A DNA stretch of 64,000 nucleotides from Desulfurococcales archaeon (GTDB taxonomy: Archaea; Thermoproteota; Thermoprotei_A; Sulfolobales; NBVN01): assembly GCA_027002995.1 (NCBI GenBank), contig JALWZB010000155.1, positions 91,682 to 155,681 on the forward strand. The letters are read 5' to 3'. The notes beneath the pieces are model-generated. The model had not been told where the DNA came from, did not search any database, and worked only from the letters and a program-made list of their open reading frames with translations. Position numbers and translations under genes: made by a program. Positions 2,549 to 46,845 of this stretch are shown here, in pieces. The first letter of the stretch is position 1; each line of letters begins with the position of its first letter.

Positions 2549-3012
2549 AAATAAGTCAATGTTTAGGGAAGGAAACACATCATATGAATCACCCCCTTAG
2601 GAGAGTCAGCGGTTACCGAAGGCACTACCTCAGTAATCTTTTGAGGGAGGTTAATGGAATGCCTCTAGTAATGGAGCATACGGTCCTCAAGCACATTAAA
2701 GTAGTATGTATATCGGGAGAGGGTCTAACCGATGTTTACGGGGACTTACCGGGCTTACCTTCATGCTTCGACAAGTTAAGCTGTATCTCCATCGGTAGTG
2801 CTAAATCTTGCCTATCCAACTGGATAGAGTTGCAGAATATGAAGCTACGATTCATGATCTCCACAGTATTCGGGGAGGATAGGGTTACGGGATTCCAGGT
2901 AGTGTCAAGCGAGAACCTATGCAGTAAGGACCCGGAAAGCATAGTGTTAGGCGTTCTTGAGGTTCTGGGTAAGTTATGTGAGTATGACGCTAGCTCTTTC
3001 ATTAAAACTTGA
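2509..3012 (+). CDS. hypothetical protein (start uncertain)
   Basis: ORF only. Its end overlaps the start of the next ORF by 4 nt (3009-3012), suggesting co-translation. No motif recognised. Confidence 0.3.
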   Translation: MPILRNRVEALNLKISQCLGKETHHMNHPLRRVSGYRRHYLSNLLREVNGMPLVMEHTVLKHIKVVCISGEGLTDVYGDLPGLPSCFDKLSCISIGSAKSCLSNWIELQNMKLRFMISTVFGEDRVTGFQVVSSENLCSKDPESIVLGVLEVLGKLCEYDASSFIKT

Positions 3013-3590
3013 GAAGAATATTTTACCAAGGCACGCACTTTCATTGTGGTCGACACTCAATGATAAGGAAAGTTTTAGCTGAGGGGTTAACTGAGGAAAG
3101 TAAGCTAAAGGACGTCATTGAATTAGTGGCTAAAAAGGTGGGTGCGAAAGCCTTGTTCAGCAAGACTGGTGACGCCTACTTCGTAAGTGTGGATTCCTCG
3201 GGGAAACATCTGCTTGACTTAAGAATTACGAAGCATGTCTGCGAGTTCTACCTAGAATGTGTTAATGCGGACTTCCTAGAGGTGCTGAATCTTGTAGGTT
3301 TTAACGACCTCTATGACGTACTTACGAAGCATAATGCCTTACCAACGAGGGTGGTCATCTCGAAATCAATAGCTTCAAGGAGCCTTTACATCCTCTTAGA
3401 AGGACGGGAAGGCATTCCTAGCCTACCTAACATTCGTGTAACCATAAGAGAGGGCGAGGAGAATGCTACGTCTAGTTACTGCAGGATATCTAGGGAGGAG
3501 AATACCTGTACCTTACTTAACGACTTGATTAACCTAGGTAAGAAACTTTGGAAGGAATTCTTTGGAGTTCCCAAAGGAATCCCTTGCTGA
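3009..3590 (+). CDS. hypothetical protein
   Basis: ORF only. 4-nt overlap with the upstream ORF. Confidence 0.35.
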   Translation: MRRIFYQGTHFHCGRHSMIRKVLAEGLTEESKLKDVIELVAKKVGAKALFSKTGDAYFVSVDSSGKHLLDLRITKHVCEFYLECVNADFLEVLNLVGFNDLYDVLTKHNALPTRVVISKSIASRSLYILLEGREGIPSLPNIRVTIREGEENATSSYCRISREENTCTLLNDLINLGKKLWKEFFGVPKGIPC

Positions 3591-5228: not shown

Positions 5229-5322
5229 TGGTAGCCGGGCGGGGATTCGAACCCCGGTCACGGGGGATCTCCCCACGCCTTGGGCCAGAGCCCCGCATCC
5301 TTGGCCGCTAGACGACCCGGCT
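5229..5322 (-). tRNA. tRNA-Gln(CTG) with an approx 18-nt intron at 37/38, CCA encoded
   Basis: The reverse complement folds as acceptor AGCCGGG/CCCGGCT, anticodon stem CGGGG/CCCCG, loop CTCTGG with an intron, T arm CGGGG-TTCGAAT-CCCCG, then ACCA. Confidence 0.85.
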
Positions 5323-5426
5323 CCGTTTTACACTCACTTTAACCTTGAATTTAAGGTTTTCTTCAACGTCTGCCCCTGAGTTCTATTTAGCATAGAAATT
5401 GCCTAGTAGGGAATTTATGGAAGTAG

Positions 5427-5516
5427 TGCCGCCGCGGGGATTCGAACCCCGGACCTCCGGATCTCCCAGGGCGGGCCGTATGAGTCCGGCGCTCCACCAG
5501 GCTGAGCTACGGCGGC
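5427..5516 (-). tRNA. elongator-type tRNA-Met(CAT) with a 16-nt intron at 37/38
   Basis: Acceptor GCCGCCG/CGGCGGC, anticodon stem CCGGA/TCCGG, loop CTCATA[intron]A. Intron nt TGGG pair with loop nt 32-35 to give a canonical BHB. No encoded CCA. Confidence 0.85.
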
Positions 5517-5640
5517 ACCAATAAATGGCTATATTGCTAGTTTTTTAAGCTTTAACGCCTTGAGTCTCTCTAAAGACTATTTAGGGGGTCAGTGTTCTGA
5601 GGCGTATAAAACAACTGGTGTTTAAGGGAAGGAAGAAAAC

Positions 5641-5768
5641 GGCGGGACCCCAACTTGGGAGGGGCTGCGAGGCCTCGCGGACCTCACTGCCCCTCCCAAC
5701 GCGGTGGGCTTAACTTCCGGGATCTGACGAGTCCGGGTGTTTCCCCACCGCTATGGTCGGGGCCGCCG
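5641..5768 (-). rRNA. 5S rRNA (stand-alone)
   Basis: The reverse complement reads ...CCCGACCATAGCGGTGGGGAAACACCCGGACTCGTCAGATCCCGGAAGTTAAGCCCACCGCG..., matching the conserved archaeal 5S core. Terminal helix GGCGG/CCGCC, followed by a T-rich tract. Confidence 0.9.
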
Positions 5769-13129: not shown

Positions 13130-13756
13130 CTACGGCTTCAACCATTTAAAAGTTATGTAAGACCTAGCACCTGAAGGATACGTTATGGCAAGTAGTAGCT
13201 CCTTCCTCACACTATGTGATAGTCTACCCCACCCTATCAGGTCGCCAGGATCTATCAGCTGGTCATAATCGAGCACCTTGACTAGGTAGGGGGCATGTTC
13301 AACGCCTGGCATCGCTTTATAAACGGCAAAGTCAGCGCCGTACTTCAGCGCTGAACGCACTATGAAGCCCGTATCCCTCAGCTCCTTATACGCGCTGTAA
13401 AGTACATCAAAGTCCTTGACCACTTCCCTCGCGAAGGACCTCAACTCCTGAACGCTGACCTTCATCCCCTCCCTAAGCACCTCAAGTACCCCGGCCTCAG
13501 CAAGGTACGTGGTCTCAAGCAACGATAACTCTATAGGCCTGCGTATGTCAGTTGTCTTAGGCTTCCTAATCCCAACGGGTTTGCCGAAATAACCCCTGCT
13601 GAAAAGGCAACGAGCCTTATCTACGTCAAACACCACTGACTTTGACCCTATTAGATGCGCCTGTACGGGAGCACAGACCCTAACACTCTCAGCGGTGTAG
13701 GGATATGTACCTGATATAAGTCCCCACCCTCTTGAGAATGTCGGCTGCATCCTCAA
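13130..13756 (-). CDS. endA: tRNA-splicing endonuclease, catalytic subunit
   Basis: YKELRDTGFIVRSALKYGADFAVY, catalytic His in EHAPYLVKV, catalytic Lys in SHSVRKELLLA. Confidence 0.85.
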   Translation of the reverse strand: MRMQPTFSRGWGLISGTYPYTAESVRVCAPVQAHLIGSKSVVFDVDKARCLFSRGYFGKPVGIRKPKTTDIRRPIELSLLETTYLAEAGVLEVLREGMKVSVQELRSFAREVVKDFDVLYSAYKELRDTGFIVRSALKYGADFAVYKAMPGVEHAPYLVKVLDYDQLIDPGDLIGWGRLSHSVRKELLLAITYPSGARSYITFKWLKP

Positions 13757-28723: not shown

Positions 28724-28945
28724 ATGGTTATAAAAGTCAGAATAGATCAGGAGAAGTGCATAGCCTGCGGCTTATGTTACGGCATGTGTCCCGATGTTTT
28801 TGAAGCCGATGATAATGGTAAGAGCAGACTTGTGGAAAAGTACAGAGCATCTTCGAAGGTCGAAGGCGAGGTTCCTGATTCCTTAAGAAATTGCGTTGAG
28901 GATGCAAAGAACGGCTGTCCCGCTGGTGCTATTGAAATAGAGTAA
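28724..28945 (+). CDS. single-cluster 4Fe-4S ferredoxin
   Basis: CIACGLCYGMCPDVFEADDNGK...CP, a Pyrococcus-type ferredoxin pattern. Confidence 0.85.
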   Translation: MVIKVRIDQEKCIACGLCYGMCPDVFEADDNGKSRLVEKYRASSKVEGEVPDSLRNCVEDAKNGCPAGAIEIE

Positions 28946-28964
28946 TGCATCAAAGCGCAGTAAA

Positions 28965-28972
28965 GTATAAAA
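28965..28972 (+). promoter_or_regulatory. TATA-like box for the tRNA(CAT) 3' half
   Basis: GTATAAAA is centred about 26-27 nt upstream of 28996, the first nt of the leader helix. Confidence 0.45.
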
Positions 28973-28995
28973 TCTACTTACTCCCTTTTCCTTAT

Positions 28996-29059
28996 GGCGG
29001 AGGACCGTACGGGACTCATAACCGGGTGGTCCGGGGTTCAAATCCCCGCGGGCCCACCA
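28996..29059 (+). tRNA. 3' half of split tRNA(CAT): 20-nt leader (28996-29015) plus exon nt 33-76 (29016-29059), CCA encoded
   Basis: TCATAA-CCGGG-TGGTC-CGGGG-TTCAAAT-CCCCG-CGGGCCC-A-CCA. The leader GGCGGAGGACCGTA is the exact reverse complement of 29414-29427. Confidence 0.8.
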
Positions 29060-29349
29060 CTTCTCTACAATTAAGCCCTAAATTCTACGTATTACCTACT
29101 ACATTCCCAATAATGATTTTCCCTAACTAGGTGCTAAGTGTACGATAAGGATGTTTTGAATTTAACAACACATTCAAATGCTTTAAATTACTTAAGTATG
29201 TGACATAGTATGCTTAATAATCCACACTGCAGCAGGCCACCTATCTTAGATAAAGATCCAACGCTGTCTTTAACCGAACCCGGAGGGGCAGGTAAAGCCC
29301 ATGGATCCACACTAAAGGCTAACTTCTAAAGCACTCTGAGGGAAAACGC

Positions 29350-29357
29350 TTATATAA
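29350..29357 (+). promoter_or_regulatory. TATA-like box for the tRNA(CAT) 5' half
   Basis: TTATATAA is centred about 26-27 nt upstream of G1 at 29380. Confidence 0.45.
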
Positions 29358-29379
29358 CCCCTTTACCCTAGGTTCCTAT

Positions 29380-29427
29380 GGGCCCGTAGCTCAGCCAGGT
29401 AGAGCGCCCGGCATACGGTCCTCCGCC
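29380..29427 (+). tRNA. 5' half of split tRNA(CAT): exon nt 1-32 (29380-29412) plus 15-nt trailer
   Basis: GGGCCCG-TA-GCTC-AGCCAGGTA-GAGC-G-CCCGG-C, then A-TACGGTCCTCCGCC. The acceptor 5' strand pairs with CGGGCCC of the 3' half. A T-rich tract follows. Confidence 0.8.
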
Positions 29428-29622
29428 CTTCCTAACAGGTAGTTCTTTTACCTTCTCAATGTTTCGCTTGCTTATAGCGTGTTTTCCACGAGGACAATGC
29501 TAAAATAGTATGTACGGGATATATAACGGCTGGTCTTAGCGCTACTTGTCCGCTAAGTACCATATTAGCTTAATAACCCAGTAGTGCCACTCTACTTGTT
29601 AAGTCGTAGGAGTTGGAACCCT

Positions 29623-46716: not shown

Positions 46717-46845
46717 TGGTCCCCCGGGAGGGATTCGAACCCCCGACCGCCCGGTTTCTGCCGGAGGGCCCCCACCCGGGGGTTACCGATATGTACCCTC
46801 CGGGGCTGACTACAGCCGGGCGCTCTACCGCTGAGCTACCGGGGG
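46717..46845 (-). tRNA. tRNA-Tyr(GTA) with an approx 53-nt intron at 37/38, CCA encoded
   Basis: Acceptor CCCCCGG/CCGGGGG (the C1-G72 pair typical of archaeal tRNA-Tyr), anticodon stem CCCGG/CCGGG, loop CTGTAG[intron]A. Intron helix CCGGAGGG/CCCTCCGG. Confidence 0.9.

Follow-up and report, generated by a model that had tools for sequence, protein, structure and literature searches.

The window analysed here is a 64,000-nucleotide (nt) stretch of DNA from a Desulfurococcales archaeon (assembly GCA_027002995.1, contig JALWZB010000155.1, positions 91,682 to 155,681 of the forward strand), with a G+C content of 46.7%. It carries two separate pieces of one tRNA gene with the anticodon CAT. Both pieces are on the plus strand, the 3' half lying upstream of the 5' half with about 320 nt between them. 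A first-pass annotation, made from the letters of the window, had described them as a split tRNA gene. The anatomy of the locus, its counterparts in related genomes, and the likely route to a mature tRNA are considered in turn.

Anatomy of the two half-genes

The features at issue are as follows (positions in the window; strand; description; bp, base pairs):

28960-28973, plus: predicted promoter of the 3' half, a sequence like the B recognition element (BRE), GTAAAG, with the TATA box GTATAAAA (28965-28972)
28996-29009, plus: leader of the 3' half, GGCGGAGGACCGTA, one strand of a 14-bp trans helix (the outer helix, h')
29010-29015, plus: CGGG, the partner of exon residues C27-G30 in a central 4-bp helix, followed by the bulge residues A and C
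29016-29059, plus: 3' exon, T33-A76, which completes a cloverleaf with 29380-29412
29060-29379, plus: spacer between the halves, 320 nt, with the 5'-half promoter at its 3' end
29342-29357, plus: predicted promoter of the 5' half, BRE-like GAAAACG with the TATA box TTATATAA (29350-29357)
29380-29412, plus: 5' exon, G1-C32, comprising the acceptor 5' strand, the D arm, the anticodon-stem 5' strand, and C32
29413-29427, plus: trailer of the 5' half, A (third bulge nucleotide) and TACGGTCCTCCGCC, the second strand of the 14-bp helix
29443-29457, plus: T-rich tract TTCTTTTACCTTCTC, the likely terminator of the 5'-half transcript
13130-13750, minus: EndA, catalytic-type subunit of the splicing endonuclease, a 206-residue open reading frame (ORF) with both EndA domains and the predicted cutter of the motif described below

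The 5' exon reads GGGCCCG-TA-GCTC-AGCCAGGTA-GAGC-G-CCCGG-C, corresponding to tRNA positions 1-32 with a 9-nt D loop. Directly 3' of C32 follow A at 29413 and TACGGTCCTCCGCC at 29414-29427. The upstream piece, 28996-29059, reads in full GGCGGAGGACCGTA-CGGG-AC-TCATAA-CCGGG-TGGTC-CGGGG-TTCAAAT-CCCCG-CGGGCCC-A-CCA. Its exon portion, 29016-29059 (TCATAACCGGG-TGGTC-CGGGGTTCAAATCCCCG-CGGGCCC-A-CCA), provides the anticodon CAT, A37, A38, the anticodon-stem 3' strand, the variable loop, the T arm, the acceptor 3' strand, A73, and an encoded CCA. On re-reading the window, the coordinates and sequences first given for these pieces all proved accurate. Joining 29380-29412 to 29016-29059 yields the 77-nt tRNA(cat) that had been predicted, and ARAGORN folds it into a flawless cloverleaf in which the C32/T33 junction reads ...GAGCGCCCGGC/UCAUAACCGGGUGGUCCGGGG.... 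A test join shorter by one base gave no flawless cloverleaf, which places the junction at 32/33.

Neither piece alone is called a tRNA, and default ARAGORN and Rfam at its gathering score report no tRNA at the locus. No Rfam match, credible ORF or gene was found in the spacer between the halves. A hidden RNA gene in the spacer, such as a C/D box sRNA, was considered and set aside: at E<=10 Rfam returned only weak T-arm look-alikes, and the spacer is not conserved. Searches of the 64-kb window found no second 3' half, no second copy of the leader, and no contiguous copy of the split tRNA. That the 3' half is a viral or mobile attachment-site copy gained no support from scans of viral contigs: the 3' exon matched nothing in a collection that may lack the relevant viruses, and the 5' junction pattern gave one unrelated chance match (L245; labels of this type are our own), which carries no tRNA.

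The leader (28996-29009) is the exact reverse complement of 29414-29427, as first proposed; direct comparison gives 14 of 14 nt. Perfect 14-mer inverted repeats are not rare in themselves, with 29 pairs in the window. What gives this one meaning is where it lies: no second match to the 19-nt leader GGCGGAGGACCGTACGGGA occurs in the window, even with 3 mismatches allowed (0.00 expected in shuffled sequence), and the leader abuts pieces that complete one tRNA. RNAduplex, applied to the pieces, pairs CCCG (27-30) with CGGG over 4 bp, leaves a 3-nt bulge, G31-C32-A, and continues with the 14-bp helix, at -37.1 kcal/mol. On the leader strand, CGGG is followed by A-C-T33, a second 3-nt bulge. The inner helix is only about 1 bp (G26:C34), and this bulge-helix-bulge (BHB) arrangement is of the relaxed type.

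The cutting rule used in the first-pass annotation, between bulge nucleotides 2 and 3, holds on manual reading of the canonical 16-nt intron in the window's tRNA-Met(CAU) gene (c[5426-5516]). Applied to the split gene, it predicts a 5' cut between 29412 and 29413 (C32/A, the slash marking the cut) and a 3' cut between 29015 and 29016 (C/T33). A candidate enzyme is encoded in the same window, as had been noted: the EndA ORF matches Pfam PF01974 (2.6e-26) and PF02778 (1.3e-14). Its closest solved chains are 3p1z_B and 3ajv_B, then 2cv8 and 2zyz_B. We take these structures (3p1z, 3ajv, 2cv8, and 2zyz) to come from Aeropyrum pernix, Sulfolobus tokodaii, and Pyrobaculum aerophilum; 3p1z, 3ajv, and 2zyz are presumably (alpha-beta)2 enzymes. 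The EndA ORF may start later than its first ATG, structural similarity beginning at residue 26. The gene and the split tRNA are 15 kb apart.

Each half has its own putative promoter. The 3'-half box, GTAAAG-TATAAAAT, lies 22 nt before the leader (23 nt counted from GTATAAAA), and the 5'-half box, GAAAACG-CTTATATA, lies 23 nt before G1 (22 nt counted from TTATATAA). An A-rich element, an 8-nt TATA box, and a distance of 24-25 nt to the mature 5' end are common to all seven of the window's other stable-RNA genes. Both half promoters match these genes in motif, architecture, and spacing, which suggests that both boxes function as promoters. (Matches from scans for sigma-70 promoters and intrinsic terminators were ignored as not applicable to archaea.) The T-rich tract reported after the 5' half is present: TTCTTTT, at 29443-29449, lies 3' of the trailer. 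Pyrimidine- or T-rich tracts also follow the trailer in the related loci L034, L121, L120, L026, and L086, as well as the window's other tRNAs.

The same locus in related genomes

The 33-nt 5' exon was scanned for in one genome per species. It occurs at no fewer than 120 genome loci, in contiguous, intron-containing, and split CAT tRNAs, sorted here by what follows it:

TCATAA, a contiguous CAT tRNA: at least 66 loci
TGATAA, tRNA-Ile(GAU): at least 18 loci
TCTTAA, tRNA-Lys(CUU), with discriminator G: at least 11 loci
TCATA and an intron at the canonical site: at least 9 loci
an intron directly after C32: at least 11 loci (L008, L021, L037, L041, L049, L061, L062, L069, L083, L107, L115)
no 3' exon directly following: at least 6 loci (L026, L034, L086, L099, L120, L121)

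The introns at 32/33 share a frame: C32/A, helix, loop, helix, CGGG, A, N/T33. The segment CGGG-A-N/T33 is invariant in 4 of 4 split types and 10 of 10 cis-intron types, as is the A after C32. Judged by this frame, the motif deduced from the window is a conserved intron class of the same tRNA. The cis-introns occur in relatives labelled Desulfurococcales or Sulfolobales and have the same exon sequence at the junction. Several of these genes also occupy the same neighbourhood as the split gene, divergent from the Fer4-SSB-PqqD genes. They differ from the split gene in forming one transcript, with introns of about 22-38 nt, an outer helix of 4-8 bp closed by a loop, and no internal promoter. Because relatives carry 32/33 cis-introns with the same relaxed frame, the endonucleases of the group would be expected to handle the motif of the split gene.

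The first-pass annotation had staked its reading on conservation or covariation of the helix in relatives. Covariation was tested over 14 distinct forms (4 split and 10 cis) anchored at the junction, for the first 6 bp of the outer helix. In all, 97% of cells are paired, and 6 of 6 pairs show compensatory changes, on both sides. The covariation score was reached in none of 500 shuffles, and sliding the partner by 1-3 columns lowers pairing to 18-39%. (The central CCCG:CGGG helix never varies, and so is uninformative on covariation.) Together with the cis-introns at the same site and in the same frame in at least 11 related genomes, this supports the joining at 32/33 and the relaxed BHB that had been proposed.

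Some relatives carry a further intron. A canonical 37/38 intron lies inside the 3' half in L086 (5104-5174) and L120 (5101-5171, minus strand), and inside the cis gene of L107 (from 3186). In L041 (Desulfurococcales, from 2098) and L083 (Pyrodictiaceae, minus strand), introns interrupt the CAT tRNA twice, at 32/33 and again after the anticodon loop. Two introns may be ancestral, with loss of the canonical one in the window clade.

Where a 5' half stood as an orphan, its 3' half was located by searching for the complement of the trailer. At least four lineages hold the split form at one syntenic locus, in three layouts (genomes; arrangement; distance; trailer and leader):

Window, L034, L121, L248/L250, L249: 3' half upstream, same strand; spacers of 320, 118, 791, 312, and 791 nt; trailer and leader identical to those of the window
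L086: 5' then 3' half, same strand; 103 nt between C32 and T33; TACGGgTTCCCTGCCC / GGGCAGGGAACCGTA
L099: 5' then 3' half, same strand; 190 nt between C32 and T33; TACAGCCCcTCCCTGCC / GGCAGGGAGGGCTGTA
L120: 5' half plus, 3' half minus, convergent; 4.6 kb apart; TACGGCTCCTCCGCtc / ggGCGGAGGAGCCGTA

L026 has an L120-type 5' half with the same flank layout, on a contig that ends before the expected 3' half. A metagenome scan with CNGTACGGGANTCATA (14 specified bases) returned, among the matches listed, only one relevant contig, L225, which is identical to L120; the remaining listed matches are chance occurrences in gut and soil contigs.

Against outer helices of 4-8 bp in the cis-introns, the split forms have helices of 14-16 bp, in four different sequences. 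For every 5' half, its own leader is the best partner or comes within 0.1 kcal/mol of the best (-36 to -41 kcal/mol). The L120 leader, which closely resembles that of the window, scores almost as well with the window's trailer and is the best partner of the L026 trailer. The promoter boxes recur as well. The 5'-half box CTTATATA is invariant in the window, L034, L121, and L248, as is the 3'-half box, and a similar 3'-half box lies 22-24 nt before the first paired leader nucleotide in L086, L120, and L099 (AAAGTATAAAAT, AAAGTATATTAA, and AAAGGATAAAAA, respectively). The spacing from TATA box to leader is 22-24 nt across all four helix types. In L086 and L099, this box lies inside the gap between the halves, an arrangement that Chan et al. 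validated experimentally for Aeropyrum pernix tRNA-Asp.

The syntenic loci comprise TFB, SUI1, a small zinc-ribbon gene, a ferredoxin gene (Fer4), an SSB-like OB-fold gene, and a PqqD-like gene. In relatives with contiguous or cis-intron tRNAs (L008, L019, L061, L105, L107, L115, and others), the tRNA is divergent from Fer4-SSB. L099 and L086 keep that context: zinc ribbon (plus), 3' half (minus), 5' half (minus), Fer4 (plus). L120 and L026 show one inversion of the block from TFB through SUI1 and the zinc ribbon to the 3' half, with a breakpoint between the halves. The window has zinc ribbon, Fer4, 3' half, 5' half, and SSB, all on the plus strand, a layout that two inversions could produce if one breakpoint of each fell between the halves. 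Separation and reordering of this sort appear to have been tolerated repeatedly, which is expected only if the halves are independent genes. The order of 3' before 5' is most simply a by-product of local inversions that broke between them.

This bears on one claim that did not stand, namely that the locus sits between the split and permuted categories. In relatives, the same halves, with a leader of the same type and the same 3'-half promoter, stand in normal order (L086, L099) or convergently (L120), so the reversed order appears incidental to the rearrangement of two independent genes. TFB identity is 86-90% throughout among the four split lineages and the cis-intron genome L107, values too even to settle the tree of these lineages. 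That the split arose only once is suggested by the purine-rich leaders and by the likeness of the 3'-half promoters.

Within the window clade, proteins neighbouring the tRNA in the window, L034, and L121 are 64-100% identical. In the alignment of these three, both promoter boxes, leader, exons, CCA, and trailer are invariant; L248/L250 is a fourth variant of the window layout with the same invariant elements, and the 3' exon is 100% identical in the window, L034, L121, and L248-L252. The spacers (118, 312, 320, and 791 nt) and downstream flanks cannot be aligned; their sole similarity is in the last 41 nt or so of the spacer, which hold the 5'-half promoter. The two promoters of the first-pass annotation thus lie where it placed them and persist where their surroundings do not. 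Read from sequence, the pattern is one of purifying selection on two transcription units and not of the decay of dead fragments. The arrangement is also no assembly artefact, since it recurs in independent assemblies from several samples and sources: TFB and SUI1 proteins identical to those of the window residue for residue are found on contigs of several metagenome assemblies and on metagenome-assembled genomes (MAGs) at NCBI, and such contigs, where examined, carry the tRNA arrangement of the window. The related genome records are labelled Desulfurococcales or Desulfurococcaceae archaeon. The comparison of relatives that had been recommended accordingly finds the split form conserved in the window clade, with related layouts elsewhere.

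Three observations concern the neighbouring genes. The Fer4 protein of the window clade (28724-28945, plus strand, in the window) is only 49-56% identical to Fer4 of all other syntenic genomes, whereas those of the other genomes (L008-L121) are 66-93% identical to one another, and TFB and SUI1 are 83-90% identical. Either paralogue replacement or fast evolution would account for this, coincident with the rearrangement that moved Fer4 across the tRNA halves. L034 shows another local inversion: its small zinc-ribbon gene (2968-3159) points the other way from that in the window and L121, in a locus otherwise collinear with theirs. In all syntenic genomes a DUF123 gene (PF01986; 30361-30849, minus strand in the window) is conserved nearby; to connect it with the local rearrangements would be pure speculation.

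Proposed assembly, probable identity, and precedents

The locus very probably encodes a functional split tRNA that is assembled in trans, most likely tRNA-Ile2(CAU), and that arose from a gene with a 32/33 intron and was reordered by local inversions. Two short RNAs would be made, each from its own archaeal BRE/TATA promoter: a 5'-half RNA consisting of G1-C32 and a trailer of about 15 nt, ending at the T-rich tract; and a 3'-half RNA consisting of a 20-nt leader and T33 through CCA. Trailer and leader would anneal through the G+C-rich 14-bp helix, while the acceptor and anticodon stems form between the halves. Pairing of the leader CGGG with exon residues C27-G30 would then create the relaxed BHB, with a strong outer helix, a 4-bp centre, and the bulges G31-C32/A and A-C/T33. 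The crenarchaeal splicing endonuclease would cut both bulges, and an RNA ligase would join C32 to T33, giving the 77-nt tRNA with the loop CUCAUAA. Conversion of C34 in tRNA-Ile2(CAU) to agmatidine would allow it to read AUA. As to origin, an ordinary tRNA gene with a non-canonical 32/33 intron would have acquired a promoter inside the intron and a longer helix, and so have become two adjacent halves in the usual order; the 3'-before-5' order of the window would then have come from inversions that broke the DNA between them.

Several points weigh against this account. The case for the half-RNAs and the joined tRNA is made at the level of sequence. With an inner helix of about 1 bp, cleavage would depend on an endonuclease of broad specificity; only the catalytic-type EndA subunit was seen in the window, where no search for a structural beta subunit was made. 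The sequence 3' of the 3' half, CTTCTCTACAATT, is a weak terminator, which makes read-through toward the 5' half possible. Members of the window clade share one helix sequence, and covariation comes only from comparisons between lineages. The view extends over 64 kb of the genome, and an intact second copy, or a tRNA-Ile(UAU), may lie elsewhere. The Ile2 identity draws on resemblance and on bacterial identity rules.

That identity is itself likely. The split tRNA is up to 95% identical to tRNA-Ile(GAU) of relatives, from which it differs at few positions, compared with 81% for the window's elongator tRNA-Met(CAU), whose body begins GCCGCCG. It carries A73, C4-G69, U12-A23, C29-G41, A37, and A38, which belong to the bacterial Ile identity set, archaeal Ile determinants not being established (PMC9976931); the elongator tRNA-Met of the window lacks C4-G69 and C29-G41. 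Codon usage points the same way: AUA makes up 95 of the 145 Ile codons in eight confident genes of the window, so its reader would be in heavy demand. Archaea normally have three CAU tRNAs: initiator Met (iMet), Met, and Ile2 (PMC8450103). The split tRNA is not an initiator, because it has G1-C72 in place of A1-U72 and lacks three G-C pairs at 29-31, as the joined sequence bears out. Preference for Ile2 over elongator Met, already voiced in the first-pass annotation, is thereby strengthened. A second elongator tRNA-Met(CAU) encoded by a genuine split gene is rather unlikely. ARAGORN does call Met from the anticodon CAT, archaeal determinants for IleRS and the agmatidine synthase TiaS are not tabulated, and the tRNA-Lys(CUU) of some relatives shares the 5' half, so that similarity of the body is not decisive alone. 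Against this stand the elongator Met already present with a different body, the closeness to tRNA-Ile(GAU) with its four Ile-type features, the need for a reader of the main Ile codon, and the usual archaeal set of three.

Split tRNAs are known for iMet, His, Lys, Gln, and two Glu in Nanoarchaeum equitans; for Gly, Glu, and Ala sets in Caldivirga maquilingensis; and for Asp and Lys in the Desulfurococcales. Reviews of 2014-2015 list 12 anticodons, with a single CAU among them, that of the N. equitans initiator (joined at 37/38). Searches of the open-access literature up to 2026 turned up no description of tRNA-Ile2, or of an elongator-type CAU tRNA, in split form. The Desulfurococcales cases resemble the window's in belonging to the same order, in having a promoter for each half and a BHB at the junction, and in their trans helix (13-14 bp and G/C-rich in known split tRNAs; 14 bp in the window). 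Their halves are adjacent in A. pernix (same strand) and in Thermosphaera aggregans (convergent). In the tRNA-Lys of Staphylothermus, the 3' half is upstream of the 5' half on the same strand, 4.8 kb away (Table 1, PMC3218864). They, too, are believed to have arisen recently out of an intact or intron-containing gene, with synteny broken at the tRNA. The window differs in its anticodon (CAU, probably Ile2), in a junction at 32/33 as opposed to 37/38 or 30/31, and in a relaxed as opposed to canonical motif. Its reversed halves are directly adjacent (118-791 nt in the clade, with no gene between), unlike the distant halves of Staphylothermus; and cis-intron, adjacent, convergent, and reversed forms occur at its one syntenic locus, unlike the Desulfurococcales cases. 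The tRNA-Gln(UUG) of N. equitans is likewise joined at 32/33. N. equitans and Caldivirga share with the window the annealing of leader and trailer in trans and a relaxed BHB, theirs being processed by an endonuclease of the (alpha-beta)2 type, and Caldivirga leaders resemble introns at the same position in related species, a further likeness. Those genomes differ in having several split tRNAs each, with halves dispersed over the genome.

Permuted tRNA genes offer the other comparison. Those of Thermofilum pendens (tRNA-iMet and tRNA-Tyr) and of Cyanidioschyzon merolae also have the 3' part upstream and a leader and trailer capable of forming a BHB (PMC3218864, PMC3978253), and the T. pendens genes encode CCA, as does the 3' half in the window. 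They have one promoter and 1-85 nt of intervening sequence (PMC3218864), whereas the window has a second conserved promoter and a long unconserved spacer; and their parts join at 59/60 (T. pendens and those C. merolae genes that are listed), as opposed to 32/33. The window locus thus shares with permuted genes an upstream 3' part on the same strand, and appears to lack their single promoter and short intervening sequence. What is found instead is two pieces that make up one tRNA, a G/C-rich helix, a BHB at the boundaries, and a putative promoter for each half. The locus is best read as a split tRNA, not as a permuted single-transcript gene. What is new is the isotype, the newly sampled uncultured clade, and the adjacent reversed layout; the kind of gene is not new.

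Could a single transcript nevertheless be used? Transcription from the 3'-half promoter would read through the 320-nt spacer, the ends would pair in cis, and splicing would leave a circular intermediate, from which the tRNA would be freed by RNase P and by processing of its 3' end, in the manner of Cyanidioschyzon merolae and Thermofilum pendens. The order of the halves on one strand with no gene between them, the weak terminator after CCA, and the low-level read-through transcript known for the adjacent tRNA-Asp halves of Aeropyrum pernix are all compatible with such a route. It is nonetheless improbable as the main one: the 5' half keeps a BRE/TATA of its own at normal distance, invariant in the clade; the spacers, 118-791 nt and unconserved, depart from the short spacers and single promoter of known permuted genes; and the layouts of relatives include one that could not be co-transcribed (L120, convergent and 4.6 kb apart). 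Read-through of the permuted type could be a minor parallel route. A combined scheme, in which trans-spliced halves coexist with a read-through precursor and a large circular intermediate, and in which the 5' half may also serve a GAU 3' half elsewhere, is doubtful. The idea of sharing arises because the 3' half is the one with the anticodon, and because tRNA-Ile(GAU) of relatives has the same positions 1-32; halves are shared between tRNAs in Nanoarchaeum and Caldivirga. Least credible is that the pieces are dead fragments of a rearranged tRNA gene, an intact copy being present elsewhere. The locus is clearly rearranged, and a case built on sequence from 64 kb leaves some room for such a copy. 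Yet at least four diverged genome types have exons, leader, trailer, and promoter boxes in common, letter for letter, while their spacers and downstream flanks can no longer be aligned, and other lineages keep the complementarity through different helix sequences. No contiguous copy was found in the window nor, among the matches listed, in the split-form assemblies, which are incomplete MAGs.

If the locus is a split tRNA assembled in trans, its significance lies mainly in its history. Split tRNAs are known from only a handful of archaea and have a part in the argument on whether tRNA began as two half-genes or was broken up at a later stage. At this syntenic locus, the forms make a graded series: contiguous; with a 32/33 intron; adjacent halves with a promoter in the former intron; and inverted or reordered halves. 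As a comparison, the series speaks directly for the 'late' route, on which an intron precedes the split, and suggests that halves, once separated, behave as independent genes. To specialists it will be no surprise in principle, but an unusually clear evolutionary series. The split tRNA is probably essential, AUA being the commonest Ile codon in the window genes; and as the gene escapes standard tRNA finders, genome bins from this lineage will seem to be without tRNA-Ile2. Dual expression, if true, would naturally link the split and the permuted kinds of tRNA gene.

Other stable-RNA genes of the window

Further stable-RNA genes lie on the minus strand, the first three in a cluster at 5229-5764:

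5229-5322, minus: tRNA-Gln(CUG), with an 18-nt intron
5426-5516, minus: elongator tRNA-Met(CAU), the gene with the canonical 16-nt intron used above for the cutting rule
5645-5764, minus: 5S rRNA
46717-46845, minus: tRNA-Tyr(GUA), with C1-G72 and a 54-nt intron

ARAGORN labelled the tRNA-Met gene Tyr(ata)/Ser(cga), the result of a misplaced intron, and the isotype was corrected by hand. The tRNA-Tyr(GUA) gene is missed by default ARAGORN; it was found by Rfam (54.9 bits) and by intron-aware ARAGORN.

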